32,000 bases of DNA from Pyrodictium delaneyi (GTDB lineage Archaea > Thermoproteota > Thermoprotei_A > Sulfolobales > Pyrodictiaceae). Under the pieces are notes generated by a model that ran no database searches, was not told where the DNA came from, and saw only the letters and a list, made by a program, of their open reading frames with translations. The stretch is taken from positions 1,890,001 through 1,922,000 of the forward strand of contig NZ_CP013011.1 of NCBI RefSeq assembly GCF_001412615.1, given 5' to 3'. Both the position numbers and the translations under genes were made by a program. Positions 1-13,520 of this stretch are shown here, in pieces (the first letter of the stretch is position 1; the number at the start of each line of letters is the position of its first letter).

Positions 1-2
1 AG

Positions 3-188
3 ATCGACCGCACAATAGAGCACCTCTCAATAGACTTGAACATGAAGAAGTACGAGATCTACGAGATAGGAGCGAGAGTGATAGTAGAGCTGCTAACGAC
101 TGGGAAGCTAAGCGAGCAACTCCGCAACAAGATAGCAAGCATGCACAACAAGGTAGCCCGTGCTGAGCTCGCTGCGGCTACAGCATGA
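3..188 (+). CDS. Hypothetical protein, 5'-truncated by the window edge (..IDRTIEHLSIDLNMKKYEIYEIGARVIVELLTTGKLSEQLRNKIASMHNKVARAELAAATA*)
   Basis: Frame 3 is open from the window start to TGA 186-188, with codon usage like its neighbours. It is not in the ORF track because it has no start in the window. Confidence 0.5.
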   Translation: MDRTIEHLSIDLNMKKYEIYEIGARVIVELLTTGKLSEQLRNKIASMHNKVARAELAAATA

Positions 189-204
189 GCGTGGGGGTGA
201 GGGT

Positions 205-783
205 GTGGTGGCTGTGCTTAGGAAGTTTGTTGATGGCCTAGGTAAGGACAGGAATGTCTACTACGAGGTTGGTGATGGTGTGCTACTATCAGATGAAGAG
301 TTAGTGATAGTCAAAGGGAATAATAGGGCTCTAGAGGGAAGTATTGACTTTACGAAGCTGGTCTACACAATCGCATCAGATATTAAGCCAAGCCTCTACA
401 TGGTGCACATGATTGACAAAGGAAGAAACATCTACGTGTACATGCCACAAATACTGCTACTGAACGCAGTATTTCAATGGATAGATGAAATGCTAAGAGA
501 GATTGACGAGAGTAACAAACGTCTACATGAGATATACATGGCTGACCTCGACTCGGGCAAGTACACGTCAGTGGAGAGGGAGCTCCGCGAAGCACTAGAC
601 CTCATCAACGCGGTAAAGGAGTGGCTAAAGACTGCAAGGGTTCTGCTTGGGTGGCTGCAGGTCATAACAATGAATCCTGACCTTGTGAGGGGGAAGAAGA
701 TCACGGTAGGACTAGAGAAGCGCGAGGCAGACGGCCTAGACAAGTACATGAAGAAGGAAGCCAAGGCAGAGGCCGAGGGGTGA
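205..783 (+). CDS. Hypothetical protein with a coiled-coil-rich C-terminal half (ORF track 160..783)
   Basis: 207-aa ORF. The likely start is GTG 205/208, preceded by GGGGGTGAGG (SD-like) and lying after the upstream stop at 188. Confidence 0.6.
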   Translation: MVAVLRKFVDGLGKDRNVYYEVGDGVLLSDEELVIVKGNNRALEGSIDFTKLVYTIASDIKPSLYMVHMIDKGRNIYVYMPQILLLNAVFQWIDEMLREIDESNKRLHEIYMADLDSGKYTSVERELREALDLINAVKEWLKTARVLLGWLQVITMNPDLVRGKKITVGLEKREADGLDKYMKKEAKAEAEG

Positions 784-790
784 CCAGAGG

Positions 791-1027
791 GTGGATTGTC
801 TGCCGCGGCTGGTGCATGTGCATGGATGCTGGCTTGCCATCAAGGCGTCTAGCTGCGAGGAGCTGGAGAGGGCTGAGCGCATCCTAGAGGCCCTCGACGC
901 GGAGAAGCTGCTCTACGAGGGTGCTCCCGTGGCGCCCGACTGCGCCAGGGTCTACGAAGAAGCCAGGGCAGCCCTGCAGGAGACCCAAGGAGTTGCAGTA
1001 GAAGCGGCATGGCCGAACCCGAGGTGA
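791..1027 (+). CDS. Hypothetical small protein (78 aa)
   Basis: GTG-start ORF packed between neighbours. The start is uncertain. Confidence 0.45.
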   Translation: MDCLPRLVHVHGCWLAIKASSCEELERAERILEALDAEKLLYEGAPVAPDCARVYEEARAALQETQGVAVEAAWPNPR

Positions 1028-1034
1028 CCGCGCG

Positions 1035-1208
1035 ATGAGGGTCATAACATTCAAAGCAGACGAAGAGCTCTTGGAGAGGCTAGACATGTTTGCACGCCTC
1101 AAGGGCGTGACACGGAGTGAGGTCATACGACGCGCCATCGAGCTCTACCTCAAACTAGAGGACTACAAGGTGCAGCCAGAACCAAAGATTGTGAGGCTGA
1201 CAAGCTGA
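1035..1208 (+). CDS. Ribbon-helix-helix (CopG/Arc/MetJ-type) DNA-binding protein, 57 aa. Not in the ORF track (<60 aa)
   Basis: ATG 1035 lies 8 nt after GAGGTGA. The translation is MRVITFKADEELLERLDMFARLKGVTRSEVIRRAIELYLKLEDYKVQPEPKIVRLTS. This is the canonical RHH pattern: N-terminal beta-strand, helix A, G-x-T-R-S-E turn, helix B. Confidence 0.8.
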   Translation: MRVITFKADEELLERLDMFARLKGVTRSEVIRRAIELYLKLEDYKVQPEPKIVRLTS

Positions 1209-1219
1209 GGTGACGGGCC

Positions 1220-1402
1220 GTGGCTGACGAGGAGTGCCAAGTTATTGATGGTGCTATAGTTGAACTGTGCAAAGAGGCTAGGCGCAGATGCATTGAAGAG
1301 GACGATGACGATGCATGTGCATTCTGGCGCTTCGACTGCCACATCGTAAGAGAGTGCCTAAAACTGCGAGAAAGAGGAGTGACGTGCCGTGCTGGACGCT
1401 AG
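1220..1402 (+). CDS. Small acidic Cys-rich protein (60 aa, 6 Cys)
   Basis: GTG 1220 is preceded by GAGGTGA (1207-1213). It overlaps the next ORF by 14 nt. Confidence 0.5.
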   Translation: MADEECQVIDGAIVELCKEARRRCIEEDDDDACAFWRFDCHIVRECLKLRERGVTCRAGR

Positions 1403-1961
1403 GGCGTTGAAGGCCAGGTATTCCTCGAAGTGGCGGCTGGCAGCTAGGCGGGAGCTGCTTTCATATAATATACTGAATATACTGCTGGCCCGGTATGGCT
1501 GCTATGTGTTGTTCACGGGTGTCGGGAGCGGCTACACCGGCTACGTACCAGACAACTATGATAGCCCATTGAACGCCTTCGACTTCGCGGTTTTCTGCAG
1601 CAAGGGTAAGGGCGACGAGCTGGTAGCCTTTGTCGACGTTACCGGCTACCGGGACTACAGCGACGGCAGGGGCGACACTAAGCCCTGCATACTCTACAGG
1701 AAGGTGGAGAAGGCGAAGAGGCTTGGCATACCCCTGGAGCGGGTGTGGTTCCTACACTTCGTAGACACCAGGGTCTCAATGAGGCTGATCAACGCCCACC
1801 TGGTAGAGGAGATGCTGGCGCAGGGTCTGGCAGAGAAGCGGAAACTATACCGCGACGAGAACTGGTACATATGCATAGAGCAGCGCCGCTGGCTAGAACC
1901 ACGCAACTTCATGAAGTGGCTGGCAATGATGAAAGAGGTGAACAACAGTGGCCAGCTATGA
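1389..1961 (+). CDS. Hypothetical protein, 190 aa, with weak PD-(D/E)XK-nuclease-like motifs (FDFAVF ... AFVDVTGY ... YRKVEKAK)
   Basis: The ORF has coding-like composition. The nuclease-like assignment rests only on a loose motif reading. Confidence 0.55.
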   Translation: MLDARALKARYSSKWRLAARRELLSYNILNILLARYGCYVLFTGVGSGYTGYVPDNYDSPLNAFDFAVFCSKGKGDELVAFVDVTGYRDYSDGRGDTKPCILYRKVEKAKRLGIPLERVWFLHFVDTRVSMRLINAHLVEEMLAQGLAEKRKLYRDENWYICIEQRRWLEPRNFMKWLAMMKEVNNSGQL

Positions 1962-2099
1962 GCCGTACAGCTGGAGCGGCTCCTCGAGGAGCTGGCTGAT
2001 GAACTGCGGGAGCTGGATGGGCTGCAGTCCAGGGTTGCCATGACGCTTGCCCGGATCAAGCTCCTACTAGAGCTAGAGAGTCGCTCGTAGGACTGGGGG

Positions 2100-2144
2100 C
2101 TATACTTTGACCTCTAGGCTGGCTATACCCTCGGCGGGCTATAC
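2100..2144 (+). repeat. CTATAC triplet array 1 (hexamers at 2100, 2123, 2139; spacing 23 and 16 bp)
   Basis: GGCTATAC occurs three times, in or adjacent to the 2091..2163 gap. Confidence 0.6.
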
Positions 2145-2820
2145 TCGGCAGCGCCTAGTCGTCATGCTGAGGGACTCTATGGGGCTGAGCTGGGGCGCGA
2201 TAGCAGAGATAGTATATGGGAGCAGGAATGAACGAGCGAAACTGAAGGCCTACGCACTCTACGCAACTGCAAAGAAGAAGGAGCACTATACTCCCGGCAA
2301 CACCAGTGCTATACCGGGCGGGAGCTATACCGAGCTGCGCCCAGAGCGCGGTTGGCAGCAGCGGGCTAGCCCCGTTCTCACGGGGTCTACGATAGGCACT
2401 CTACCAGGGAAATGGGGTAAGAAGGGGGAAGAAAGATACATCGAGGAAGCCGCGGGGATACTACGATACTTCTACGACCTTGTCTTTACACGCTATGATT
2501 TCGATAAGAGCATCCTGGCCTACGCCGAGGAAGTGCTCCGCAGGAGCCGCGGGCTGCTGGAAGGCGAAAAAGTGCATATCAAGCGCGGCTACGTCAAACT
2601 CACGCCGCGCGTCGCCGCAGTGGTTTACGCAAGCTTCTTTGTGAGCGTCTACAACCTCGCCCGCGGCCACCAGGTGCTGGGCGAGCTCTTCTACCACCTA
2701 GTTCAATACCTGAGCCAGACGAAAGAGCTCCGAGGGAATGCGAAGAAGGCGAGGGAGAAGCTGCAGGAAGAACTGAAGCAGATTATGCCGCACTTCGTCA
2801 AGTACATGATTCCGCCCTAA
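2107..2820 (+). CDS. Putative HTH DNA-binding protein (MGLSWGAIAEIVYG helix-turn-helix-like N-terminus). The start is either TTG 2107 or ATG 2164
   Basis: 237-aa ORF. With ATG 2164, the third GGCTATAC box sits about -25. With TTG 2107, the protein contains AIPSAGYT/AIPGGSYT repeats. Confidence 0.6.
   Translation: MTSRLAIPSAGYTRQRLVVMLRDSMGLSWGAIAEIVYGSRNERAKLKAYALYATAKKKEHYTPGNTSAIPGGSYTELRPERGWQQRASPVLTGSTIGTLPGKWGKKGEERYIEEAAGILRYFYDLVFTRYDFDKSILAYAEEVLRRSRGLLEGEKVHIKRGYVKLTPRVAAVVYASFFVSVYNLARGHQVLGELFYHLVQYLSQTKELRGNAKKAREKLQEELKQIMPHFVKYMIPP
2286..2330 (+). repeat. CTATAC triplet array 2 (hexamers at 2286, 2309, 2325; spacing 23 and 16 bp)
   Basis: The phasing is the same as array 1 but the spacers have diverged. 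It lies inside the 2107..2820 ORF. Confidence 0.55.
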
Positions 2821-2835
2821 GGCTGTGGGGCTCCG
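2811..2835 (+). promoter_or_regulatory. Intercistronic element copy A (variant TCCGCCC..GGGGC), 25 nt before GTG 2836
   Basis: The sequence is TCCGCCCTAAGGCTGTGGGGCTCCG. Confidence 0.4.
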
Positions 2836-3144
2836 GTGAAGCGGTTAGCGGCTATTCTGGCGCTCCTCGTATTCCTGGACGCGGCCACAACCTGGTATGC
2901 ACTCTCTACCGGCCATTTCGTTGAGGCGGCTCCTCTCACCTCTAGGCTCCTACCCATCATGGGTCCACTATACTGGGTGCTCGTGGAGTATCCCATACTG
3001 CTTTTCATGACCCAGTTTGCTAGGCTAGCCCCCCTGGGGCGCCGGGTTCTCGTGTATGTTCCTCTCGCCGTGGTCTCTGCTGCTGTCGTGAATAATGTGG
3101 CGTGGTTGCTGAGAGGGGGGTACCTGTTCTCCGGGACGCCGTAA
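2836..3144 (+). CDS. Small integral membrane protein (about 3 TM). The LDAATTWYAL..G..E..P motif is reminiscent of DUF5658-type proteins (from memory)
   Basis: GTG start with hydrophobic segments throughout. Confidence 0.6.
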   Translation: MKRLAAILALLVFLDAATTWYALSTGHFVEAAPLTSRLLPIMGPLYWVLVEYPILLFMTQFARLAPLGRRVLVYVPLAVVSAAVVNNVAWLLRGGYLFSGTP

Positions 3145-3159
3145 ACCCGGGTTTATTGT

Positions 3160-3185
3160 TCGCCCTGGCTGGGCGGAGAAGAGGT
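3160..3185 (+). promoter_or_regulatory. Intercistronic element copy B, 26 nt before ATG 3186
   Basis: The sequence is TCGCCC-TGGCT-GGGCGGAGAAGAGGT. CGCCC and GGGCG are complementary. Confidence 0.6.
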
Positions 3186-3674
3186 ATGCAGCGCCAAGCC
3201 TTGCTGGCCCTGGCTCTGCTCCTGGTAGCAGCAGTAGCGGTTCCCGCTGCCGCGGCCTCTCTAACCGTCAGCGCCGACAAGGACACGTACAGCCCCGGCG
3301 AAACCGTGGTAATCACGGTAGTCGTGGAAGACAACGCTACCAGTGCAACAGTGGCGGTGACGGTCCACGATCCCGAGGGTACGCTGGTCTACAGCGACCA
3401 GCTAACTGTGCAGCTTGTGAACGGCACAGGGAGCACCAGCACAAGCTTCGTTCTCCCCGGCGATGCCAAGGAAGGGAACTGGGTGGTCAAAGCACAGTAC
3501 GGCAGTGTCAGCGCCGAGGATGTGTTCCTCGTAGGCGGGTCTGGAAATGGGGGCTCCGGCGGGTTTGGGGGCGGCAACGTTGTTGTTGGTGCTGCTTTTA
3601 TTGCTATGGCTTTCATTGCTCTAGCCATCTCGCTGAACAAGAGCAAATCGCCCCAGACTGGGCGGAAGAGGTGA
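3186..3674 (+). CDS. Secreted, C-terminally anchored glycoprotein candidate. Layout is signal peptide, Ig-like beta-sandwich (DKDTYSPGETVVITV), Gly-rich linker, TM and basic tail
   Basis: ATG 3186 follows GAGGT. MQRQALLALALLLVAAVAVPAAAAS looks like a signal peptide. There are NAT and NGT sequons. GGSGNGGSGGFGGG is followed by a TM and KSKSPQTGRKR. The ORF-track N-terminal extension (3102) overlaps the previous gene. Confidence 0.7.
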   Translation: MQRQALLALALLLVAAVAVPAAAASLTVSADKDTYSPGETVVITVVVEDNATSATVAVTVHDPEGTLVYSDQLTVQLVNGTGSTSTSFVLPGDAKEGNWVVKAQYGSVSAEDVFLVGGSGNGGSGGFGGGNVVVGAAFIAMAFIALAISLNKSKSPQTGRKR

Positions 3675-3680
3675 GAACCG
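3648..3680 (+). promoter_or_regulatory. Intercistronic element copy C, 33 nt before GTG 3681
   Basis: The sequence is TCGCCCC-AGACT-GGGCGGAAGAGGTGAGAACCG. It is nearly identical in plan to copy B. Confidence 0.55.
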
Positions 3681-4463
3681 GTGCCAAGGAAGAGCCGCGA
3701 GCGTAAGATGCTCGAGCTGCTAAGCGACTTCGGCATAATACTAGCAATACTGGCGCTGATAGCGTCCCTTGGCATGGCTATCAGCGTCACGGTGAGGACC
3801 CCGATACTCACCCTGGCCGACGTCTGGGATCATAGGGACTATGCTAAGGTGCACGTATACCATTTGGTGAACGGGAGCGAGGTAGAGGATGTTTACAGGC
3901 TAGAGGACATCGCGAGCTATGCCAACGGCACGCTAAGCATAGCCTCTCCCGCGGAGAACACCACGAAGATAGTGCTCGAGCTGCAGTGGCTCTCATGGTC
4001 AGCTCTGGCCGACCGCGGCATAAACAGTGTGAACATAACCGTGGAGCCTGCAGCGGAGATAGAGTTCGGGCCGTTCACCGGAAACGGAACGATAAGCAAG
4101 ACCACTAATCCAGTTGAGTTCAGCGTCTGGGCGAACACGCATCCGGGCACGGTTAAGCTTGAAGTACACAATGCTAGCGCAGTGGACATAGCAAGGCTAG
4201 AGGTCATGGGCGTAGGCAAGCAGCCCTTGCTGGCCGTGCTGACACAGCCGTTTTGGGCCGTCGGTGGCATGATAATGGGCTACATCACAGCGATAGCGGC
4301 TGGCATAAGGAGACAGCTAGGATACGTGATGGGTGCAATGAGCGGTGCCATAGGCGCTTTCGTGGGAGCCATTGCAGAGAACCCGATAGCCGCGATAATG
4401 GGCATGGCTGTGGTACTCTTCGTGTTCTACATGATAGCGAAGGAGCAGCCACGCCGACGCTAG
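3681..4463 (+). CDS. Membrane glycoprotein candidate: N-terminal TM, ectodomain with six N-x-S/T sequons, C-terminal Gly/Ala-rich TM pair
   Basis: 260-aa ORF. The sequons are NGS, NGT, NTT, NIT, NGT and NAS. Confidence 0.65.
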   Translation: MPRKSRERKMLELLSDFGIILAILALIASLGMAISVTVRTPILTLADVWDHRDYAKVHVYHLVNGSEVEDVYRLEDIASYANGTLSIASPAENTTKIVLELQWLSWSALADRGINSVNITVEPAAEIEFGPFTGNGTISKTTNPVEFSVWANTHPGTVKLEVHNASAVDIARLEVMGVGKQPLLAVLTQPFWAVGGMIMGYITAIAAGIRRQLGYVMGAMSGAIGAFVGAIAENPIAAIMGMAVVLFVFYMIAKEQPRRR

Positions 4464-4477
4464 GAGCGTTGAAGGGG

Positions 4478-5071
4478 GTGAGGCCGGTGAGGCTGAGAGG
4501 TGCAATAAGCTTCGGCGGAGTACTACTGCTCTTCGTAGCGATAGTCATTATACTGCTAGCGTTCAGCTTCATAGGCGGTGCAAGCTGGTTCTCTCAAACG
4601 GTTAACGCGATAAACAGTCTCTTCGGCGGGATGGGGGAGTTCCTGCCGATCCTTGCTCTCTTCGGCGCAGCCGGCCTAACGGTGTGGCTCGGCGCAGAAC
4701 GTGAATCTCCTCTGCTCCTGACAGCCGGCGGCATAATGTTCGCCGCAGCGATGGGGTGGCTCGCCAACATACAGACATTCCTAACAACGGTGCTGTCGAG
4801 CGTCGGCACGCTAGCGTTCAGCTTCGCAATGCTGTACCTAGCGTATAGGACAAGCGGCTTCCAACGAGTCATCTTCGCAATGGCCGGCGCGATAGGAGCG
4901 ATAGGCGGCACCGTGCTAAGCCTAGGCGACTGGTTCAAGGGCTTTATGGAAGCATTAGTAGTACCCTTTGAAAGGATTGCAGGGCTAAACTACGTAGGCG
5001 TGATAGTGGCCGTGGTGGCACTCCTAGCAGTAGGCGGCCTAATCTTGCGCATCCTCAGGAAGGGCGTCTAG
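4478..5071 (+). CDS. Polytopic membrane protein (about 6 TM)
   Basis: The hydrophobic ORF most likely starts at GTG 4478 or 4487, after GGGGGTGAGG. The ORF-track portion 4253..4477 overlaps the previous gene and is Arg/His-rich junk. Confidence 0.6.
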   Translation: MRPVRLRGAISFGGVLLLFVAIVIILLAFSFIGGASWFSQTVNAINSLFGGMGEFLPILALFGAAGLTVWLGAERESPLLLTAGGIMFAAAMGWLANIQTFLTTVLSSVGTLAFSFAMLYLAYRTSGFQRVIFAMAGAIGAIGGTVLSLGDWFKGFMEALVVPFERIAGLNYVGVIVAVVALLAVGGLILRILRKGV

Positions 5072-5081
5072 CCCACTTTTT

Positions 5082-5106
5082 TCGCCCCCACGCTGCGGGG
5101 GCAACG
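5082..5106 (+). promoter_or_regulatory. Intercistronic element copy D, 25 nt before GTG 5107
   Basis: A T6 tract is followed by TCGCCCCC-ACGCTGC-GGGGGCAACG. The stem is 6 bp. Confidence 0.6.
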
Positions 5107-6126
5107 GTGGCTCGCCAGCTTATACTGCTGGCACTTCTCATCCCACTACTCGCGGCTGCAGCCGCGGCTGCAGACATCAACATCTGGTACAGCTGTGACA
5201 GTAGCGGCTTGTACATAAGCATAAGCAGTGATGTACCGTTTACGTACACTGTGATGCACGATGGTAATGTCATTGACTCGGGGCAATCCAGTAGCACATA
5301 CGCAATAACGGTGACTATGCCTGGTACATACGAGGTCGAGGCATATCCAACGGGTAGCAATACGGGGAAATGGGCTGCAATAAGCTATGACGGCGCAACA
5401 TGCTCGTGTAGTGGTGCGTGCAGCGGAAGCGGGGGCGGTGGTGGAAGCGGCGGGGGCGGTTGGGGCGGAAGCATAGGCATCGACTGCAGCGGCTGGTGCA
5501 ACAACTGCCAGCTACCCCCAGGACTCACATGGATATGCGATCTAGTCTGCAGCCTATGCAGGATAATCAACGGCATGAAAGCAGCAATAGAAGCAATCGC
5601 GAACTTCTTCGATGGGCTCCTCGGAGCGATCCACAGCGTCGGACAGAGGATAATAGATGGTATAAGCGCTGTCGGAAGCTTCTTTGCCGGCATCGGGGAC
5701 GCTGTGATAGGCTTCTTCTCGAGCGTGGCGAGCAGGGTAACAGGCTTTGTCGATGCTTTGAGCAGCTTCTTTGGCAGCTTGGCAGACGCTGTATACAGTT
5801 TCTTCAAGGGATGGTTCGACTTGATAACCGCGCCGTTCCGCGCTATAATGGACAGGTTGGGCGGGGGCAGCGGCGGGGCAGGGGTGAAAAGTGCCGGGGG
5901 GATGACGTGGAGACAATACTTGTTCATGCTCGGCGTCGCATTGATTGTGGGTGGCGCTTTCGCGGGTGGGAGAGCGAAGATAATCTCTCTGGCAGGCGCG
6001 CTAATAGTCGCATACATAATGTTCACGGACCGCCAGTTCATAGAGGGGATAGTGAAGTCGCCGTACCTGGTCATAGCTGCTGGTGCATTCCTGCTAGTCT
6101 ACGCGGCGCTGAGGATGAGAGAATGA
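5107..6126 (+). CDS. Secreted Cys-rich protein with a Gly linker, 11-residue-periodic FF amphipathic repeat region and C-terminal TM segments. Candidate virion or envelope protein
   Basis: MARQLILLALLIPLLAAAAAAA looks like a signal peptide. There are 9 Cys between residues 99 and 151. GSGGGGGSGGGGWGG is a Gly linker. FF occurs at residues 192, 203, (214), 221 and 232. Two or three TM segments lie at the C-terminus. Confidence 0.7.
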   Translation: MARQLILLALLIPLLAAAAAAADINIWYSCDSSGLYISISSDVPFTYTVMHDGNVIDSGQSSSTYAITVTMPGTYEVEAYPTGSNTGKWAAISYDGATCSCSGACSGSGGGGGSGGGGWGGSIGIDCSGWCNNCQLPPGLTWICDLVCSLCRIINGMKAAIEAIANFFDGLLGAIHSVGQRIIDGISAVGSFFAGIGDAVIGFFSSVASRVTGFVDALSSFFGSLADAVYSFFKGWFDLITAPFRAIMDRLGGGSGGAGVKSAGGMTWRQYLFMLGVALIVGGAFAGGRAKIISLAGALIVAYIMFTDRQFIEGIVKSPYLVIAAGAFLLVYAALRMRE

Positions 6127-6425
6127 GCTGGGAAGCATGGATAGAAGAGCTGAAACAATGGACAACTATGCAGTGGGCGCTGTTCTGGCTAGGAGCAGCA
6201 ATGATAGCCTATGGCCTGAAGAGCCACCCGAGGATATCGCAGTGGGGCGCGGCGCTCTTCTTGGCCGCGTTTTTCTGGCCCCTACTCCGCCAGGTGCACG
6301 CCTACACGTTGCGGCTCAGCGGCGACCCGGTGACAGCGGCTATAGCGACTGTCGCCGCGATCTTTGTCGGCCCTAGGATACTGTTGGAGCTGGTGAAGGC
6401 TGCGCTACGGAGCAGGTCGCCCTAG
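6123..6425 (+). CDS. Small membrane protein (about 100 aa, 3 TM)
   Basis: ATG 6123 overlaps the upstream stop (ATGA). It is the only sensible part of the 335-aa alternate-frame ORF 5418..6425. Confidence 0.55.
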   Translation: MSWEAWIEELKQWTTMQWALFWLGAAMIAYGLKSHPRISQWGAALFLAAFFWPLLRQVHAYTLRLSGDPVTAAIATVAAIFVGPRILLELVKAALRSRSP

Positions 6426-6441
6426 GGGGCGGAGAGTAGGG
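6417..6441 (+). promoter_or_regulatory. Intercistronic element copy E, 25 nt before ATG 6442
   Basis: The sequence is TCGCCC-TAGG-GGGCGGAGAGTAGGG. Confidence 0.6.
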
Positions 6442-6693
6442 ATGGTTCTCAGGCTGAAGCAAAGCGGGGTTGTGGACGGGTTTGATCTGGAAGAGCTAGA
6501 GGAGATAGTGGCTAGCGCGGCGGAGAAGGCTGTCGAGAAAGCTATCCGCAGAAGGGGGGACACGCTGGCATACGCGCAGAGAGTCCTGCAGGTCTACCAG
6601 TTCTTCGAGTCGAATGTGGGGGATAAGCAGGTCGCGCTTGAGCTCACCCGTATAGTCTTCGTCTCCGAGAAGATGGGTGAGGGAGATGAGTAG
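6442..6693 (+). CDS. Hypothetical acidic protein (83 aa)
   Basis: ATG-start ORF, with intercistronic motif copy E 25 nt upstream. Confidence 0.55.
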   Translation: MVLRLKQSGVVDGFDLEELEEIVASAAEKAVEKAIRRRGDTLAYAQRVLQVYQFFESNVGDKQVALELTRIVFVSEKMGEGDE

Positions 6694-7216: not shown

Positions 7217-7218
7217 GC

Positions 7219-7244
7219 TCGCCCTCTCCGGCGGAGAGCCCGGG
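7219..7244 (+). promoter_or_regulatory. Intercistronic element copy F, 26 nt before ATG 7245
   Basis: The sequence is TCGCCCTCTCC-GGCGGAGAGCCCGGG. A CTCTCC/GGAGAG hairpin is also possible. Confidence 0.55.
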
Positions 7245-7547
7245 ATGCCGCGGAAGCGGGGGAAGAGGCGTAATAGGAACAAGTACCTAGGCAAGGGCTG
7301 CCAGAGCCCGCCATGCGTTCCCGACACCGGCAGACCCGGCCTCGATAATTTACACGAGGTAGAGAAGATAGCGAAGAGGATACTGCAGGACGCACGGCGG
7401 GGCAGGATAAGCAAGAAGACGGCGCATGGCCGGTTCCTGCTGCTCTATCGCCTAGTCTCCGGCAAGGATAGGGATTTCCGCGGCGCGAAGGCCCGGAGAG
7501 CCATAGCGATAGTGAAGAAGTACTGGGGGAAGCTCCGCAGGCTCTAG
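7245..7547 (+). CDS. Highly basic small protein (100 aa)
   Basis: MPRKRGKRRNRNK N-terminus. Motif copy F lies 26 nt upstream. Confidence 0.6.
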   Translation: MPRKRGKRRNRNKYLGKGCQSPPCVPDTGRPGLDNLHEVEKIAKRILQDARRGRISKKTAHGRFLLLYRLVSGKDRDFRGAKARRAIAIVKKYWGKLRRL

Positions 7548-7557
7548 CCCCTCTTTT

Positions 7558-7584
7558 TCGCCCCTCATACCCTCGGGGCGGGAC
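7558..7584 (+). promoter_or_regulatory. Intercistronic element copy G, 27 nt before TTG 7585
   Basis: A T5 tract is followed by TCGCCCC-TCATACCCTC-GGGGCGGGAC. The stem is 6 bp. Confidence 0.6.
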
Positions 7585-8559
7585 TTGACAGGGAAGCCTC
7601 TAACTCTAGCCCTCGCTATTCTCACACTACATTTTATACTATATACTGTGCCCGCGTACGCAGCCTCGAGTGGCCCCTACCTCTACCATGACCAGGAGTA
7701 CCTTGTAGTGGCTTACTACCGGTTCGGTAACCGTATCGCAATGGCGCAGAACAACAGCAAGGTCTTCAGCCCGGTCACTATAGAGGTGTTCAGCAAGACT
7801 GGTAGGCCTGTTAGCTTCGTAGTGGGAGAGCGGAAGTTCTCGCTCCTGGCGGGGTTCGGAGAGCCGGCCCGTCACGTGCTCGAGGTGCCGCCCAACCAGC
7901 ATGTGTGCATACAAGTGGTCCTGGAAGGCTCTGCGAAGAGGTTCTGCTTCTACGGCCTCGCCAGGGAGCGGGCGGTAGAGGAGTACGTGCAGATGACGGT
8001 GAAGGAGCTCGCAGCTCTGGTAACACGTGTACGGGCCGAGACGCTCGCGGCGGCGCTCGCCGGGATACTGGCTGGTGCCGGTTTGGCTTGGCTAGTCAAG
8101 ACGAGGCTGGTGCTTCTTGACGCTCTGAACCCTGTTAGCCTCGCGGCTGGGCTCATAGCCTTGGCCGCTATGCCGAGGTACTGGTGGCTCAGCATCCCAA
8201 TGCTCCTAGGCCTCTTTGCCGGCTACTGGTTGGCCCCCAGCCCGCCCACGGTAGCGCTGGTGAAACCCGACTTCAGCAATAGGCGTCTCAAGGTGTTGCT
8301 GCTCCCGGTTTACTACACGAGCGATGGAAGGCTCGCGGCGGCGCTGCAGGACTTCAAAGCGACTCTCGGGAGACTCCGGGGCAGCCACGTCTATGTGGAG
8401 AATACTGTGACGGGAGAAGGACTGCCCCTCTCAGGGTGGAGCCTAGATATCATAGACGAGAAGGGCAGGAGCAGCAGCTACGAGATGCTCCTTGTCCGCA
8501 GGATACGCTTGAAGCGTAGAAGGGTGAGAGGAGATGCTCTGGGGGAGAAGGAAGAGTAG
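7585..8559 (+). CDS. Secreted/membrane protein: signal peptide, beta-rich ectodomain, central TM cluster, basic C-terminus
   Basis: TTG start. MTGKPLTLALAILTLHFILYTVPAYA looks like a signal peptide. Motif copy G lies 27 nt upstream. Confidence 0.6.
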   Translation: MTGKPLTLALAILTLHFILYTVPAYAASSGPYLYHDQEYLVVAYYRFGNRIAMAQNNSKVFSPVTIEVFSKTGRPVSFVVGERKFSLLAGFGEPARHVLEVPPNQHVCIQVVLEGSAKRFCFYGLARERAVEEYVQMTVKELAALVTRVRAETLAAALAGILAGAGLAWLVKTRLVLLDALNPVSLAAGLIALAAMPRYWWLSIPMLLGLFAGYWLAPSPPTVALVKPDFSNRRLKVLLLPVYYTSDGRLAAALQDFKATLGRLRGSHVYVENTVTGEGLPLSGWSLDIIDEKGRSSSYEMLLVRRIRLKRRRVRGDALGEKEE

Positions 8560-8863
8560 ACCTCGAGTAGAGTACGAGTACGTGCTAGAGGTAGAGCCGT
8601 TGGTTAGCGCTGAAGAGAATGTCTTCGAATATCTGGCAGCTCCCTACGAGAAGTTTGCCGAGGTTCTCGCGGAGAATATACGGTTGAAGTGGGCCCTGAC
8701 GGCGGGGAAGCTACTAGCCTACAAGAGGGCTCATGAGATTGCACGTAGACGCATAACGTGGCTGGCCCGGAACATTCTCGCCCCACCCCGGCAGCCGCCG
8801 GGATCGCCCCTACGGCCCGGGGCGAGGGATGGCGAAGCGGAGAGGAAGGAAGAGGAAGCGTAG
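8534..8863 (+). CDS. Hypothetical protein (109 aa)
   Basis: ATG start after GAGAGGAG. It overlaps both neighbours. Confidence 0.5.
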   Translation: MLWGRRKSRPRVEYEYVLEVEPLVSAEENVFEYLAAPYEKFAEVLAENIRLKWALTAGKLLAYKRAHEIARRRITWLARNILAPPRQPPGSPLRPGARDGEAERKEEEA

Positions 8864-9344
8864 CAACCCACGGCTCCGGTACAAGAAGAGGTACGTGAAG
8901 CACAGGCGGCTCGAAGAAGAGGCGGAGCAAGTCTCGAGGGCTAGTGCTGAGCTGGGAGAGTACGTGGTCAAGTGGCTTGACGAGGCGCTGGATGCTCTGA
9001 GGCGGGGAGCCAGGAAGAAAGCGCAGAAGCTTATACGCCGCATCCTTAGGCGCGGCCAGGCCTCGATGCTCGGCAAGAGAAGGGGCCGGAGAGGCCGAAC
9101 AGTGTTTACAGACCACCTAGTGGTGAACAGCAGGGGCCGGGTCAAGCATTACGGCATACACGGGGTAAAGGGCTGGAACCCGGAGAGCCCCGAGGAAGTC
9201 CAGTTCAAGAACAAGCGCGGCGAAGACCTAGAATACGAGGAGATAGGCGAAGTAGCAGTAAAGCCCGCTAGGCGCAAAATCAAGCGTACCCAGCGCTGGA
9301 AAAGAGCCGGCGGAAAGGACAAGTCTAATAAAGGACGCAAATAG
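8829..9344 (+). CDS. Highly basic protein (171 aa, Lys/Arg-rich)
   Basis: MAKRRGRKRKRSNPRLRYKKRYVKHRR N-terminus and a basic C-terminus. Confidence 0.6.
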   Translation: MAKRRGRKRKRSNPRLRYKKRYVKHRRLEEEAEQVSRASAELGEYVVKWLDEALDALRRGARKKAQKLIRRILRRGQASMLGKRRGRRGRTVFTDHLVVNSRGRVKHYGIHGVKGWNPESPEEVQFKNKRGEDLEYEEIGEVAVKPARRKIKRTQRWKRAGGKDKSNKGRK

Positions 9345-9362
9345 TTTCCAATAAGCTGGAGA

Positions 9363-9430
9363 GCCCCCGCGTGCGATGTACGCGGGAGCCGCGGTAAGCC
9401 GCGGGGGCGGATGATTCCACCCCCTTTATA
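9363..9430 (+). promoter_or_regulatory. GC-rich nested palindromes followed by a TTTATA box, in the largest non-coding gap of the element
   Basis: GCCCCCGCG (9363-71) pairs with CGCGGGGGC (9400-08). An alternative fold is CCCGCG-N9-CGCGGG plus CCGCGG-TAAG-CCGCGG. GGGGG (9403-07) can pair with CCCCC (9420-24). TTTATA is at 9425-30. Confidence 0.5.
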
Positions 9431-9493
9431 GGACGCTTGGCCGAAACTAACCTGTGTAGAATCCTACTCCGCCCCTACTGTTGGGGGCTATGT

Positions 9494-9898
9494 GTGAGCC
9501 TCACGTCTAGGGAGCTACTGCACGAGATCGAGAAGCTGCTTGTCTCCCGGCTCCGCAGGCTGGATCCGCAGCTAGGCTCATTGGCCCTTAATGCCTATGC
9601 CCGGGAGATCGTGTGGTGGTATAAGCAGTACCAGCTTATGGGCTTCCAGCTGGAGTGGAATGCTAAGAGGCAGCGCTTCAAATGCCTAGAAAACGATGAG
9701 GGCTGCCGCCTGGCCGAGGAGCATCTCAACTACCTTCTCCTCATGGGCCGCGCCGAGACCGTGCCTCGGCTGTCGACACTGGATCAGCTCTTGCTGAGCG
9801 TGCCTGTGGGCGAAGAGAGCGAGAAGAGGAAGACATTGAGGATAGGGCCTAGGAGAAGACATGAGGACAAAGAGGAAGAAGTGATCGAGGAGTTCTAG
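9494..9898 (+). CDS. Hypothetical protein (ORF track 9437..9898; likely start GTG 9494)
   Basis: TTTATA at 9425-9430 would place a TSS near 9452. GGGGG lies 7 nt before GTG 9494. Confidence 0.5.
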   Translation: MSLTSRELLHEIEKLLVSRLRRLDPQLGSLALNAYAREIVWWYKQYQLMGFQLEWNAKRQRFKCLENDEGCRLAEEHLNYLLLMGRAETVPRLSTLDQLLLSVPVGEESEKRKTLRIGPRRRHEDKEEEVIEEF

Positions 9899-9901
9899 AG
9901 T

Positions 9902-9925
9902 TCGCCCCCTGACGTAGGGGTGGCT
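9902..9925 (+). promoter_or_regulatory. Intercistronic element copy H, 24 nt before ATG 9926
   Basis: The sequence is TCGCCCCCT-GACGT-AGGGGTGGCT. Confidence 0.55.
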
Positions 9926-10921
9926 ATGCCTAGGCTACCGATAAAGTTCATGCCCGAGGCTTTCAGCGACTATGTCTACAAGCTCCTCATCGAGGGGCCG
10001 CTGCGCGAGGTTGAGAAGGGCTCTCGGGCTATGAGGAAGCTATACTTTGTTGCGAGCCAGGGCGGCGGAAAAAGTTGGTCCATGGCTTCTACCGCAGAGT
10101 GGCTCTGGGACGAACTGGAAGCGAGGGGGCTGAGCGTTGACGTGAAAATGCTGGACGTGGATAGGCACCTGAGGCCCAAATACAGGGTTTCATGTATAGA
10201 GGAGCTCGTTGAGGCTATGAAAAACACTGCCGCGGATGTCTTCATAGGGATTGTCGGAGAGGCAGCAGCAGATCTATCCAACATGGTCATATCGGGTGAG
10301 GAGTACAAGGCGAACGTGCTCTTCGCCAGGCACTTCTTCAGGGCAAGACACTTCTCCAACGCCCGGATAGTATACCTAATGTTCGCTTCACAGAAGACAA
10401 AGCGTCTCATGGGAGATATAAGGGATCTTGCCGACCTAGTAGTAGTCAAAGCATTGCCTCGCTGGGAAGCGAACCTGATAATCGAGGCGTTGAACATAAC
10501 CGATAGGGCTGTTATAGAGGAGCTCATGAAGCTGTACGATTTGGCGTTCATATACGGAGATAAGAGCCGGGGCATAGGAGTTGCAAACGATAAGGCCGGG
10601 CTGATCCGGTTCGATCCACCCAGCCGCATCATAGACCCAAGCTACGAGGCACCGCCAGAGGAGAGAGAAGAGAAGGCCAAGCAGAGCATGAAGCGCTTAG
10701 GAAAGAGAAAGATTCTCGACTCTGTAGAGCGTAGGTGCGTGACGCGGAACTGCAGGGTGACTATCCCGGCTGAATGGCTCGAGGAGCTGCCCCGGGAGAA
10801 TGGGGCCTGGCAGTTCACGCTTGAGCGTGTCGTTCTTGAGGACGGCTCGGCGGGGTTTCTACTCCGGCCCCGGGTTCAGCAGAAGAGGCGGGGGCTGCTG
10901 GGCGGGCTGCTCCCCTTCTAG
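9926..10921 (+). CDS. P-loop NTPase with a C-terminal AbrB/SpoVT-like domain
   Basis: Walker A is ASQGGGKS (about nt 10061-10075). A Walker-B-like VFIGIVGE follows. The C-terminus CRVTIPAEWLEELPRENGAWQFTLERVVLEDGSAGFLLRP matches the AbrB swapped-hairpin pattern. ATG 9926 follows AGGGGTGG; GTG 9920 is an alternative start. Confidence 0.65.
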   Translation: MPRLPIKFMPEAFSDYVYKLLIEGPLREVEKGSRAMRKLYFVASQGGGKSWSMASTAEWLWDELEARGLSVDVKMLDVDRHLRPKYRVSCIEELVEAMKNTAADVFIGIVGEAAADLSNMVISGEEYKANVLFARHFFRARHFSNARIVYLMFASQKTKRLMGDIRDLADLVVVKALPRWEANLIIEALNITDRAVIEELMKLYDLAFIYGDKSRGIGVANDKAGLIRFDPPSRIIDPSYEAPPEEREEKAKQSMKRLGKRKILDSVERRCVTRNCRVTIPAEWLEELPRENGAWQFTLERVVLEDGSAGFLLRPRVQQKRRGLLGGLLPF

Positions 10922-10923
10922 AT

Positions 10924-10949
10924 TCGCCCAGTAGTAGCGGAGAGGCGGG
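10924..10949 (+). promoter_or_regulatory. Intercistronic element copy I, 26 nt before TTG 10950
   Basis: The sequence is TCGCCC-AGTAGTA-GCGGAGAGGCGGG. Confidence 0.55.
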
Positions 10950-11612
10950 TTGCAGAGGAGAACCCTACTACTAGGCCTGGGCGGGGCCGGAGCAGGCGCT
11001 GCTGCCGCCGTGCTAGTAGCACTACTACTATTCCAGCCTGCCGCTGAAACAGCCATGGCCGCGCTGGAGATACTGCCGGTGCTCAAGGTATACAAGAACG
11101 GCGAGCTGGTCTACATGAAGGTTGGTGACCCGCCGCTCGAGAACTGGGCGAAGGTGCTCGCCGCAATACTGACGAATCAGGGGCAGACGCTGATAACGAG
11201 CGACGGCGGTGGCGTTACACTAAACCACGGGGATGGCCTAGACGCGCTCGTTGGTAGATCCGATAACGGCGCCCTAACGGCGCCGCCGGTGGTTGTCGCG
11301 GGCCAGCTTAGTAGTGAACTGACATACAATACTTACTGGTTCGACGAGGCCTACACAGCGCCGATAACAACACTAGGCACCGGCTGGCAAGAGAACATGG
11401 GAGAGTACGTGATAAAGATCAAGGGCACAGTGACATTTGACTCCAACACTACCATAAACGTTGTGGGTCTTGCGATAAGGCCTGTGGTAGACACCTACCA
11501 GAGAACCGTACTTGTGTTTGCGGACAAGTTGCCAGAGCCTATAGATGTTAGCAGCACAGATAGCTTGACCATAGTCTATGAGATCCACATTAAGTGGCCT
11601 AGCACGGGCTAA
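10950..11612 (+). CDS. Secreted beta-rich protein with a Tat-like signal (MQRRTLLLGLGGAGAGAAAA)
   Basis: TTG start with motif copy I 26 nt upstream. A twin-Arg is followed by an h-region and an A-x-A-like site. Confidence 0.55.
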   Translation: MQRRTLLLGLGGAGAGAAAAVLVALLLFQPAAETAMAALEILPVLKVYKNGELVYMKVGDPPLENWAKVLAAILTNQGQTLITSDGGGVTLNHGDGLDALVGRSDNGALTAPPVVVAGQLSSELTYNTYWFDEAYTAPITTLGTGWQENMGEYVIKIKGTVTFDSNTTINVVGLAIRPVVDTYQRTVLVFADKLPEPIDVSSTDSLTIVYEIHIKWPSTG

Positions 11613-11621
11613 GGGTGAGAA

Positions 11622-12422
11622 GTGTTGAGGCGGGTGGCCCTACTCAGTTTTTCCCTGGCATTCCTCTCGACACTCGCAGTTCTAGCTGCTGCCGCAGAGC
11701 TGGGGCTGAGCGTGTCCAGCGTGTTTGACTGGTTCTACAACGTGACTGTCAGGCTGGGATTCAAAGCCCAGCCTGCGCCAATTGTGGCCTGGGACTACGC
11801 TCTAATGGGAAGCAGCGGGGGCAAGGCAGTAGCTGCGGACGGCTTCAGCTTGGCCTATAATCTGAGTGTTGACGTGAACACGACTGCTGCCAGCCCGGAC
11901 ACAGTGGTTGAAGTCGCCGCGTCCACTCCAACCGTCTCCGTCTACGGGGCGGAGCCCCGGCAGCTCTTCGTCGTCTACGCTAACGGGACTATGAGCGCTC
12001 TAGGCGGCGGTGGCGGGCAGCAGGTATGTGCATCTCCCAGGGAGTGCGGCCTCGAGCTTGGCTGGGGCCGGGTCTACTACACCGACGCGATGGGCAACCC
12101 GGCTAGCCCCGCCGCGGGGAAGCAGGTGCTGATCCACTTCCCGATACACGCCAGCCCCCAGGGCAGGTATGGTAAGGCGCTGGTGCTGGTAGAGGTTCAC
12201 AGGTATGATCCCAGCTACGGCACGGTGATAATCGATGAGAACATGGCGATAGGCGTGAGCTGGGCCCTCGTAGGCGACGGAATAGAGGTGACACTACTCT
12301 GGTGGCCCAAGGATCCCGGCACATATCTCATAAGGGCCTACGTCTGGAACGGGTTCCCGGGCCAGGTAGAGGAGTGGGAGAGCTACATCGAACCCCTAGA
12401 GCTGGTAGTGAATATCCCCTAG
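11622..12422 (+). CDS. Secreted protein (266 aa) with a Sec-type signal peptide
   Basis: GTG start after GGGTGAG. MLRRVALLSFSLAFLSTLAVLAAAAE looks like a signal peptide. A T5 tract follows the stop. Confidence 0.6.
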   Translation: MLRRVALLSFSLAFLSTLAVLAAAAELGLSVSSVFDWFYNVTVRLGFKAQPAPIVAWDYALMGSSGGKAVAADGFSLAYNLSVDVNTTAASPDTVVEVAASTPTVSVYGAEPRQLFVVYANGTMSALGGGGGQQVCASPRECGLELGWGRVYYTDAMGNPASPAAGKQVLIHFPIHASPQGRYGKALVLVEVHRYDPSYGTVIIDENMAIGVSWALVGDGIEVTLLWWPKDPGTYLIRAYVWNGFPGQVEEWESYIEPLELVVNIP

Positions 12423-12434
12423 TTTTTGCCCTGG

Positions 12435-13520
12435 TCAAAACCTAGGCGACGAGCTATCTCTCCCATTATCCTCAGCGAGATAGACCTGGAGCCGCCGCCT
12501 TAGCTCGGGGAGTATCTTCTCGACGTAGGCCTGGTCTGCGCGTAGGACTATCTTGCTGTAGTTGGTGAGGCCGACCACGTTCTCTATCTTGGCGTAGCGG
12601 TTCTGTATTAGCTCGCGGAGCTCCAGGTCTATCTCCAGGTCTTCCATGAGCTGGTAGTGGTGTTTGCGGAGCATCTTGGGCGGTGCCAGGTCTAGGCCAC
12701 TGCGCCTGCGTATATTCCTGACGTAGTAAGATAGGCGGCGCGCCGAGGGCGGCTCGCCATGCCACGCCCTGGCCTCTTCGAAGACCTCGCGGGGGAGCCA
12801 GAGGAACTCGCAGCGCTTCTTGCCGCGGTTGAAGTGCAGCGCCACTCTCACGGCGTCTCCCAGCTCCACGTATCCTGTTTGCTCTAGGCTCCGCTGGTGG
12901 CTTACGGGCTTCAGGCTGGCCGCCGCTCTCACAAGATATTCTGCCTCTTCCGCCCTGGCGCCAGAATAGTACATTATCTTGTAGAGTAGCGCGTAGCCGT
13001 GCTGGCCTGCGGCCTCGAGGTAGTCTATGGTGAACCGTATCTTTTCGGCCTCTACCGCGGGGGCCTTGGCCTTGCGCAGGCTCCTCTGGCCCCGCACTAG
13101 GGCGTAGATGCGCTCGCGCTCCTCTAGCGTTATGCTGCCGGTCTCCCAGAGGAAGCTGGCTATCTTGCGTATGAGGTTGGCGTACCACTTGCTCCTCTTA
13201 GCCAGCTCGGTTATAGAGTCGGGGGTTAAGACCTGGGGGAGCTTCGAGTAATAGCGCATATAGTCCTCGAGGGTTCTAGCCTCGACTTTACCGCTGAGCC
13301 AGTCCCTAAACCTGTTAGCATCCGGTAGAAGGATTTTCCAGGCCTGGGCTGAAGGCTCCGAGCCTTCCCTGGAGAAAATCTCGTTTCGATTCCTGTCTTG
13401 GCTCGGGACTCCTAAGCCGGTGGTCGGGGGTTCAAATCCCCCCGGGCCCGCCACTCTATCACCACCATTCTTCACGTACGCTATGAAGCCACTGGCACAG
13501 TCTAACCTAGAATTATACAC
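12435..13520 (-). CDS. int: SSV-type tyrosine integrase, Int(C) portion fused across attR. The drawn 361-aa ORF is probably chimeric: the N-terminal ~23 codons come from host flank and ~15 codons from antisense tRNA
   Basis: Recombinase motifs are YYSGARAEEA (Arg), LRKHHYQLM (H/R box) and GLTNYSK (Tyr). The frame reads antisense through 13409..13453. There is no Met between the tRNA segment and the catalytic domain. Confidence 0.8.
   Translation of the reverse strand: MYNSRLDCASGFIAYVKNGGDRVAGPGGFEPPTTGLGVPSQDRNRNEIFSREGSEPSAQAWKILLPDANRFRDWLSGKVEARTLEDYMRYYSKLPQVLTPDSITELAKRSKWYANLIRKIASFLWETGSITLEERERIYALVRGQRSLRKAKAPAVEAEKIRFTIDYLEAAGQHGYALLYKIMYYSGARAEEAEYLVRAAASLKPVSHQRSLEQTGYVELGDAVRVALHFNRGKKRCEFLWLPREVFEEARAWHGEPPSARRLSYYVRNIRRRSGLDLAPPKMLRKHHYQLMEDLEIDLELRELIQNRYAKIENVVGLTNYSKIVLRADQAYVEKILPELRRRLQVYLAEDNGRDSSSPRF
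13409..13453 (+). tRNA. 3' half of tRNA-Arg (anticodon CCT), positions 32-76 including encoded CCA. Attachment site copy (attR), not a complete gene
   Basis: The segments are: loop CTCCTAA (U33, A37), stem GCCGG, variable TGGTC, T-arm GGGGG-TTCAAAT-CCCCC, acceptor CGGGCCC, discriminator G, CCA. No complementary GGGCCCG acceptor strand, D-arm or CCGGC anticodon-stem strand lies upstream. Confidence 0.8.

Follow-up and report, generated by a model that had tools for sequence, protein, structure and literature searches.

The question raised by this locus is what kind of element occupies the first 13.4 kb of a 32,000-nucleotide stretch of the Pyrodictium delaneyi Su06 chromosome (contig NZ_CP013011.1, positions 1,890,001 to 1,922,000; here called the window), where a long series of mostly hypothetical genes ends at an integrase gene. 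An earlier note on this DNA had proposed a compact single-strand provirus at 1-13453, perhaps of a small enveloped virus, and had suggested the Aeropyrum provirus APOV1 or a relative of it. According to the analysis presented here, the window almost certainly contains part of an integrative mobile element, and this element is considered to be a temperate virus with a probability of roughly 0.6. To our knowledge Pyrodictium and its family have no described virus or provirus, and no description of a Pyrodictium provirus was found in the literature.

Calling of open reading frames (ORFs) in the window gave 23 plus-strand ORFs at positions 3-12422, with gaps of 2-37 nt or overlaps of 1-43 nt between them, except for two larger gaps (1961-2107 and 9344-9437), and a convergent minus-strand integrase ORF (12435-13454/13520). 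The compact array described in the earlier note was thus recovered, and its core genes proved to be under purifying selection; the description as single-stranded holds for the 23 ORFs but not for the integrase, which is on the minus strand. As to the proposed span, 13453 is the exact end of the tRNA-derived core of the attachment (att) site, while position 1 is the window edge only. The ORFs correspond to Pyrde_1889-1911 of P. delaneyi Su06 (2.02-Mb chromosome), and the supposed Aeropyrum host signature is hence replaced by this host. The locus tags were confirmed by exact protein matches for Pyrde_1890, 1891, 1894, 1897, 1901, 1904, 1908, 1909 and 1911, and were inferred for Pyrde_1889, 1892, 1893, 1895, 1896, 1898, 1899, 1900, 1902, 1907 and 1910. 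In the public annotation all of the provirus proteins are hypothetical except a ribbon-helix-helix (RHH) regulator, a nuclease and the integrase.

The integrase gene and its insertion target

The right end of the element is defined by two overlapping features.

12435..13454, minus strand: Int(C), 339 aa, C-terminal catalytic fragment of an SSV-type tyrosine integrase, Pyrde_1911
13409..13453, plus strand: attR, right element boundary; 45 of 45 nt identical to the 3' part of tRNA-Arg(CCU), from the anticodon loop to CCA

Pyrde_1911 has a tyrosine recombinase catalytic domain of the SSV1 D-335 type, with matches to PF16795 (E 1.4e-9, over the cut-off) and phrog_5127 (E 1.2e-14), so that the integrase proposed earlier was confirmed. 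Since the alignment with phrog_5127 begins at profile position 122, the window copy lacks the N-terminal part of the enzyme. The att core at 13409-13453 lies in frame inside the integrase ORF, and its origin was established by alignment with intact tRNA-Arg(CCT) genes of metagenome-assembled genomes (MAGs) of Pyrodictiaceae. It is regarded as an att remnant (attR) because the window has no tRNA 5' half and no complete tRNA; ARAGORN and Rfam searches of the window gave neither a complete tRNA nor an Rfam RNA family. The integrase of the related element L003 (loci are numbered as in our analysis), which is 75% identical to Pyrde_1911, carries a different tRNA-like 3' fragment with compensatory stem changes at the equivalent position, and the similarity between the window and L003 ends directly after the CCA. 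Judged from the sequences, such an att site within the integrase gene is the signature of SSV-type integrases that partition their own gene. In Su06, Int(C) and attR are inside the window, and the intact tRNA, attL and Int(N) would lie to the left of position 1.

Pyrde_1911 is 361 aa long in GenBank and 339 aa in RefSeq (start 13454). The GenBank version has 22 extra codons running past att, through the tRNA fragment and into host DNA up to 13520, and neither annotation marks the gene as a split integrase. In two Pyrodictiaceae MAGs the tRNA-Arg(CCU) gene (L024 7679-7710, L028 7075-7106) has an apparent intron after the anticodon and received no ARAGORN call, an observation that bears on att recognition in this tRNA.

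Four distinct syntenic relatives of the element were found in hydrothermal MAGs and metagenomes (L001/L057 with L002; L003; L004/L056 with L005 and L058; L006/L007), and every close homologue of the nucleoside triphosphatase (NTPase) encoded in the window sits in such a syntenic element. Two relatives are complete. M1 (L056 and L004; 17,335 bp) lies between 57-bp repeats that represent the 3' part of tRNA-Ala(GGC), with a 74-aa Int(N) at the left (PF07935, E 2.6e-9) and Int(C) at the right, and M2 (L057 and L001; 18,010 bp) lies between 52-bp repeats that represent the 5' part of tRNA-Val(CAC). When M1 and M2 were excised in silico, their integrase ORFs became uninterrupted again, 375 and 404 aa long, and att then followed residue 70 or 85. 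The earlier note had also asked whether the region could belong to the core chromosome. In the relatives, however, the ORFs always occur together with the integrase gene or an adjacent tRNA where an element end was captured (both ends only in M1 and M2), and the flanking host genes differ in every relative. The family is therefore conserved, selected and mobile, and is inserted through an SSV-type integrase, in Su06 at tRNA-Arg(CCU).

The window probably holds the right-hand 13.4 kb of an element of about 17-18 kb, which would span approximately Pyrde_1885/1886 to Pyrde_1911. The ORF cut by the window edge (3-188) is 78% identical to an M1 gene situated 2.9 kb inside attL, and at least about 3 kb of the provirus must for this reason lie to the left of the window. 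From the M1 and M2 sizes and gene positions the whole Su06 element probably measures about 17-18 kb. The left end is placed between Pyrde_1884 and Pyrde_1886 by the locus-tag order and by Pyrde_1884, a FeoB gene of the host; Pyrde_1887 encodes an HTH_11 protein (published proteomics tables, PMC8105010). The left arms of M1 and of the Su06 element differ, because no homologue of the 393-aa left-arm protein of M1 was found from P. delaneyi. Within 1-13600 no internal repeats and no excess of promoters or terminators were significant.

Immediately outside attR, the stretch 13560-14623 holds a gene for a DUF996 membrane protein and the minus-strand gene Pyrde_1913 for a small Mrr/PD-(D/E)XK-like nuclease, beyond which fumarase and fumarate reductase genes mark the ordinary host chromosome.

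The conserved core of 17 genes

Between 2107 and 12422 the window contains a core of 17 genes in two blocks, A (2107-7216) and B (7245-12422). Transmembrane segments are abbreviated TM, and identities are those in the relatives.

2107..2820, plus strand: core gene 1, Pyrde_1894, 237 aa, basic, soluble; 51-71% identity in 4 relatives, ratio of nonsynonymous to synonymous change (dN/dS) ~0.16
2836..3144, plus strand: core gene 2, Pyrde_1895, small polytopic membrane protein, 11 kDa, DUF5658-like
3102..3674, plus strand: core gene 3, Pyrde_1896, signal/TM segment, MG2/Ig-like ectodomain, Gly-rich linker, C-terminal membrane anchor
3681..4463, plus strand: core gene 4, Pyrde_1897, N-terminal TM, ectodomain with 6 N-x-S/T sites, C-terminal TM cluster
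4466..5071, plus strand: core gene 5, Pyrde_1898, polytopic membrane protein, ~6 hydrophobic segments
5107..6126, plus strand: core gene 6, Pyrde_1899, signal peptide, beta domain, Cys/Gly-rich stretch, Gly/Ala-rich repeats
6126..6425, plus strand: core gene 7, Pyrde_1900, 99 aa, 11 kDa, hydrophobic; 61-81% identity in 4 of 4 relatives, dN/dS 0.10-0.16
6442..6693, plus strand: core gene 8, Pyrde_1901, 83 aa, acidic; exact match; 33-54% identity
6677..7216, plus strand: core gene 9, Pyrde_1902, very basic, isoelectric point (pI) 11.6, 30% lysine plus arginine (K+R); closes block A
7245..7547, plus strand: core gene 10, Pyrde_1903, 100 aa, very basic, homologue of ORF89 of virus PAV1; opens block B
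7585..8559, plus strand: core gene 11, Pyrde_1904, signal peptide, ectodomain of ~125 aa, 2-3 TM, C-terminal domain, Arg-rich tail
8534..8863, plus strand: core gene 12, Pyrde_1905, 109 aa, hypothetical
8829..9344, plus strand: core gene 13, Pyrde_1906, very basic, pI 11.4, 32% K+R
9437..9898, plus strand: core gene 14, Pyrde_1907, ~133-153 aa, soluble; 78-90% identity
9920..10921, plus strand: core gene 15, Pyrde_1908, orphan P-loop NTPase with invariant Walker A motif ASQGGGKSW
10950..11612, plus strand: core gene 16, Pyrde_1909, RR-containing hydrophobic N-terminus, beta-rich body, homologue of gp26 of virus AGV1
11622..12422, plus strand: core gene 17, Pyrde_1910, secreted or anchored, beta-rich, 4 N-x-S/T sites

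Amino acid identity of the core genes across the four relatives is 31-90%. Compared with these relatives, the dN/dS values of the 17 genes are 0.07-0.63, mostly 0.07-0.3, and their synonymous differences are near saturation (proportion pS 0.47-0.81). All 17 core genes are under purifying selection and the ORFs are real genes; all 17 are also full length relative to the four independent relatives. These results speak against a decayed or domesticated remnant that has lost excision and is retained by the host, for example for its surface proteins, as do the att core, identical to the tRNA throughout, and the intact Int(C) with its close L003 counterpart. The distribution of the element among strains points in the same direction. 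The provirus proteins are singletons in clusters at 90% identity (apart from versions with alternative starts), each on one contig, while the flanking Pyrde_1913 is also present in P. delaneyi strain Hulk. The apparent absence of the element from Hulk, which is 99.77% similar to Su06 (PMC5556600), argues that it is strain-specific and recently acquired. A remnant would agree with the position of the left end outside the window, with the lack of detection of core proteins in culture, and with the GC content and GC skew of the window, which are not strikingly foreign; on balance it is regarded as improbable.

Most of the modules listed in the earlier note could be verified. The 3.6-kb block of signal-peptide, TM and glycosylation-rich proteins corresponds to 2836-6425 (3.59 kb) and comprises six proteins with 2-6 hydrophobic segments each and 9 N-x-S/T sites in two of them. 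Core gene 2 matched PF18902 under the curated cut-off (E 4.6e-5). The product of core gene 3 has 3 N-x-S/T sites and matched Pfam MG2 (E 3.6e-10) and phrog_215, "structural protein with Ig domain" (E 3e-4); its true start is probably internal, near 3189. Core gene 4 (61-85% identity in relatives, dN/dS ~0.1) is a candidate envelope glycoprotein, and core gene 7, for which no family was over threshold, is a candidate small membrane or virion protein. The repeats of core gene 6 (46-68% identity) are amphipathic and are accompanied by two or three C-terminal TM segments. Its residues 141-288 weakly matched several PHROGs of phage tape-measure proteins (E 7e-6 to 2e-3), probably for compositional reasons; the stretch could nevertheless mark a membrane-active or oligomerising segment.

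Likewise, the three very basic proteins are present (core genes 9, 10 and 13; pI 11.4-11.6, 30-32% K+R), and the P-loop NTPase was verified by its Walker A motif. No Pfam or PHROG family was found for this NTPase, which has 5 close homologues among 5.8e9 proteins. An exhaustive HMMER search of its profile against 1.84e9 representatives gave 5 matches at E<=1e-3, consisting of one family member, two weak distant matches and two marginal ones. A C-terminal AbrB/MazE-like domain is possible, the MazE match having an E value of only 0.11. The two secreted beta-rich proteins were supported by hydrophobic N-termini at 10950-12422. Core gene 16 is the most divergent between elements (only 31% identity between window and L003), and for this reason its product is a candidate host-recognition protein; core gene 17 shows 31-70% identity in relatives. 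Core gene 11 (51-81% identity) had no match in PDB, IMG/VR or the virus collection, core gene 14, although among the most conserved core proteins, had none in the virus collection, and core gene 17 had none in PDB. PDB sequence-profile searches with five core families gave nothing below E 0.04. That value belongs to a Myb-like match of core gene 1, for which no Pfam, PHROG, PDB or virus match was obtained and which is possibly a DNA-binding or regulatory protein. Among the regulators suggested before, the RHH protein was thus confirmed (RHH_1, E 3.7e-10), while a helix-turn-helix (HTH) protein was not, this Myb-like match being the best.

In the element at L006 7413-16570 (MAG GCA_054016755.1) the core halves are swapped, with the equivalents of 7245-12422 before those of 2107-7216, and because of this the core is viewed as two movable blocks. 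The same element has the nuclease on the opposite strand and tRNA-Val(TAC) at its left edge, and the equivalents of 2836, 3102 and 5107 are missing or replaced.

A hairpin CGCCCC-N6-10-GGGGCG after a T-tract occurs at 5067-5106 and 7543-7584, in both cases between the preceding stop codon and the start of a large signal-peptide gene (5107 and 7585). Counterparts occupy the equivalent positions in L001, L003 and L004, and in the relatives comparable elements also stand before several further core genes. An overlap of the 3' arm with the ribosome-binding site is possible; the z-scores from folding are modest (-1.3 to -2.3), and the motif is not conserved in its exact form.

A temperate virus or another mobile element

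To the left of the core the window shows an arm of small genes that is variable among the relatives, except for the RHH regulator and the nuclease.

3..188, plus strand: 3' end of a gene cut by the window edge, Pyrde_1889; the frame runs off position 1
205..783, plus strand: Pyrde_1890, 192 aa, hypothetical; exact match ALL01933 / A0A0P0N683; not conserved in relatives
791..1027, plus strand: Pyrde_1891, 78 aa, acidic, hypothetical; exact match; no family, no relatives
1035..1208, plus strand: CopG-type RHH regulator, ALL01935, Pyrde_1892
1220..1402, plus strand: 60-aa ORF, doubtful gene; apparently absent from public annotation; not conserved
1389..1961, plus strand: viral/archaeal PD-(D/E)XK-type nuclease, ALL01936, Pyrde_1893; PF12187 E 1.6e-6, phrog_9634 E 9e-25

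The identity of ORF 3..188 to its M1 counterpart extends over 51 aa of an 80-aa ORF, which itself has a weak RHH match. The RHH regulator at 1035..1208 has 74-86% identity in relatives and is similar to the CopG-like gp21 of AGV1. Its protein accession and that of the nuclease are consecutive, with the ORF 1220..1402 between the two genes. Among viruses, the nuclease is best matched by that of AGV1 (33% identity, E 2e-15) and by SSV1 D-244. The RHH regulator is also 95% identical to the product of a chromosomal gene in several Pyrodictiaceae genomes (L059-L061 10001-10174), which adjoins a HerA-like (DUF87) ATPase gene in a conserved context; more paralogues occur in P. delaneyi (e.g., Pyrde_0076) and one in Hyperthermus butylicus. 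From these identities a recent exchange of the RHH gene between host and element is suggested.

Among the relatives, elements of the M1 type have an extra AAA_18/nucleoside-kinase-like P-loop gene between the RHH and nuclease genes (L004 967-1533 / L056 10174-10740), which is not in the window element. About 1 kb past the att end of L003, a Piwi-domain (prokaryotic Argonaute) gene and two uncharacterised genes (14021-17550) may be part of a defence island of the host or of a further mobile element.

The published proteome of Su06 cultures with ferrihydrite or nitrate (PMC8105010, supplementary tables S1-S4) includes Pyrde_1886, with quantification, as well as Pyrde_1887 (HTH_11) and Pyrde_1890 (Table S4), whereas none of Pyrde_1891 to Pyrde_1914 was detected. 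This pattern fits a lysogen that expresses only its regulatory left arm.

The sequence shows that the integrase recombined an att site within the integrase gene with the tRNA-Arg(CCU) 3' part; this apparently split the gene, whose C-terminal fragment now abuts attR at 13409-13453. As a temperate virus, the element could function as follows. The variable left arm with its RHH and HTH regulators and nuclease would control lysogeny and be the sole part expressed in culture. On induction the element would be excised as a circle and replicated by the machinery of the host, since it has no polymerase of its own. Block A, mostly membrane and glycoproteins, and block B, with basic proteins, the orphan NTPase and the two secreted beta-rich proteins, would then build the particles. 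The three very basic proteins may condense the DNA inside a lipid envelope carrying the membrane and glycoproteins, host binding may be the role of the two divergent secreted proteins adjoining the integrase, and the NTPase may act in genome packaging or replication. An enveloped or pleomorphic virion, which the earlier note had also suggested, is inferred from this gene content of basic, membrane and secreted proteins, with which it is compatible.

Several results weigh against a virus. As the earlier note had stated, no polymerase, terminase or capsid family was recognised among the window proteins in Pfam and PHROG scans, and no capsid, virion protein or packaging enzyme was identified. No homologue of the AGV1 major virion protein, of the PAV1 major capsid protein or of the fusellovirus major capsid proteins was detectable, and IMG/VR gave nothing for the profiles of three core families (NTPase, 7585 and 2107). 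No circular or virion-derived contig was found, and L002, L003 and L005 have no terminal overlap. Both structure predictions were too low in confidence for use: the AlphaFold2 models of the NTPase (5-sequence alignment) and of core gene 16 (single sequence) each had a mean confidence score (pLDDT) of 48, and Foldseek returned only noise for the former. The left end of the Su06 copy lies beyond the window. The absence of the core proteins from the proteome is weak evidence, as membrane proteins are easily missed.

The main rival is an integrative plasmid or other non-viral mobile element with the same SSV-type integrase, in which the membrane and secreted proteins would act at the surface of the host cell, in exclusion or in transfer by vesicles, as in plasmid-vesicle systems, and would not form a true virion. 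SSV-type integrases are also found on integrative plasmids, which counts for such an element. The missing capsid and packaging genes, the lack of related sequences in IMG/VR and the near identity of the RHH regulator to a chromosomal gene are further points in its favor. Moreover, ORF89, the sole PAV1 homologue, is part of the PAV1 half that plasmids also carry (PMC3543421), and this homology therefore is no proof of a virion. On the other hand, family scans found no replication initiator, helicase, relaxase or conjugation ATPase among the element proteins, the core is dominated by basic proteins and membrane or glycoproteins as in enveloped archaeal viruses and unlike small plasmids, and two core genes are common with AGV1, an isolated virus. 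A non-viral element is accordingly considered rather unlikely, though it is to be taken seriously, and a temperate virus is the preferred reading. The general proposal of the earlier note, a provirus of a possibly enveloped crenarchaeal virus that has hardly any recognisable genes, is retained, and it gains strength from the relatives and from the specific links to AGV1 and PAV1.

Comparison with known viruses

The element was compared with AGV1, APOV1 and PAV1 by blastp, family hidden Markov models (HMMs) and hhalign, and 14 of the 17 core families had no match in any of the three. Megablast of 1-13600 against a phage and archaeal-virus collection that includes AGV1, APOV1, PAV1 and the SSVs gave no match, and tblastn of the NTPase, the integrase and core genes 11, 14 and 1 against the same collection gave nothing meaningful. 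Homology of the NTPase to AGV1 gp32, PAV1 ORF375 or the APOV1 ATPases was rejected (hhalign ~1% or less).

APOV1, like the element, is a tRNA-inserted provirus of a hyperthermophilic crenarchaeon; both have an SSV-type integrase and lack a polymerase, and the size of APOV1 is similar to that apparent in the window. The agreement in size arises only from the truncation of the element at the window edge, as the complete relatives measure 17.3-18.0 kb and APOV1 has 13,769 bp (PMC5882108). The target is tRNA-Arg(CCU) and not tRNA-Leu as in APOV1 (PMC5882108), the host genus is different, and there is no nucleotide match. Only the integrase (23% identity) and a motif of core gene 10, 24-45 aa long, in orf14-121 (hhalign 91.9%) are common, 19 of the 21 APOV1 ORFs being unrelated to the element and none similar to its NTPase. 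The identity with APOV1 suggested in the earlier note is refuted at the sequence level, and membership in the group of APOV1 or in Guttaviridae, of which APOV1 is the sole sequenced member, is extremely improbable.

Fuselloviridae (SSV1 and relatives) use the same integration mechanism, with att in an integrase gene that is partitioned on integration. The catalytic domain PF16795, the N-terminal PF07935 (in the relative M1), a D-244-type nuclease and CopG-type regulators are common to both, but the core ORFs of the element gave no PHROG or Pfam match to the VP1/VP3 capsid proteins, the DnaA-like B251 or other core genes of this family.

PAV1 (NC_009597, spindle-shaped, 18,098 bp) resembles the element in its size of about 18 kb, its genes nearly all on one strand and its RHH regulator. 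Core gene 10 matched PAV1 ORF89 with 45% identity over 87 aa (HMM E 2.9e-19, hhalign 98.6%, tblastn against the whole collection E 2e-5), and in both genomes the ORF89-type gene is upstream of a P-loop ATPase gene. However, PAV1 has no integrase, its host is a euryarchaeon, and ORF89 is the sole gene in common: in blastp and HMM comparisons with all core families and in hhalign comparisons with 8 of them, its major capsid protein ORF121, the lectin-like ORF676/678 and the ORF180b-ORF137-ORF375 cassette were not detectably related, and the only other hhalign match, to ORF180a, reached 15%.

AGV1 (NC_036595, an unclassified spherical temperate virus of 18,222 bp) falls into the circular-genome size class of about 18 kb like the element, has its genes mostly on one strand, and encodes an SSV-type integrase whose gene likewise contains a tRNA-derived att. 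Five genes are common: the nuclease (33-44%), the CopG regulator, the integrase (26-29%), the DUF5658-like gp10 and gp26 (24-37%). Two of these are in the conserved core, leaving 15 of the 17 core families without an AGV1 counterpart. Core gene 2 is homologous to gp10 (HMM E 5.6e-12, hhalign 96.9%) and core gene 16 to gp26 (HMM E 9e-25, hhalign 98.5%), the L003 copy of the latter having 37% identity over 216 aa (E 1e-38). The major virion protein gp01 (309 aa), the protease and the ATP-binding gp32 of AGV1 have no homologue in the element; for gp01, blastp, HMM and hhalign comparisons with the 17 core families and the window ORFs gave nothing above noise (best hhalign 11%). The gene order also differs, and AGV1 infects Aeropyrum, where no integrated copy of it was found (10.1101/2021.04.21.440749). 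Five genes out of 34 in AGV1 and about 30 in the element are enough for a link between the two but not for membership, and assignment to the AGV1 group was rejected.

As a tentative view, somewhat short of even odds, the element could be the prototype of a new virus family, the first lineage for Pyrodictiaceae (growth at about 90-110 C), with virion proteins unrelated to known capsid or envelope proteins. In that case the basic ORF89-like protein, which viruses of Thermococcales and Aeropyrum also have, would be of ancient, cross-phylum origin and would condense DNA or handle genomes in hyperthermophilic archaeal viruses. As a type strain that can be cultivated and for which a complete genome and a proteome have been published, Su06 makes induction and particle work directly feasible. 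Such characterisation could uncover a new type of virion architecture at the upper temperature limit for life and would assign a role to the ORF89-like and gp26-like proteins, which are widely scattered. Four tRNA targets are added to those known for SSV-type integrases, namely Arg-CCU, Ala-GGC, Val-CAC and an unconfirmed tRNA-like 3' fragment in L003. With a 17-gene core that is almost all dark matter, apart from two genes common with AGV1 and one with PAV1, the element belongs to an undescribed small family that has a few genes in common with AGV1, PAV1, APOV1 and the fuselloviruses.

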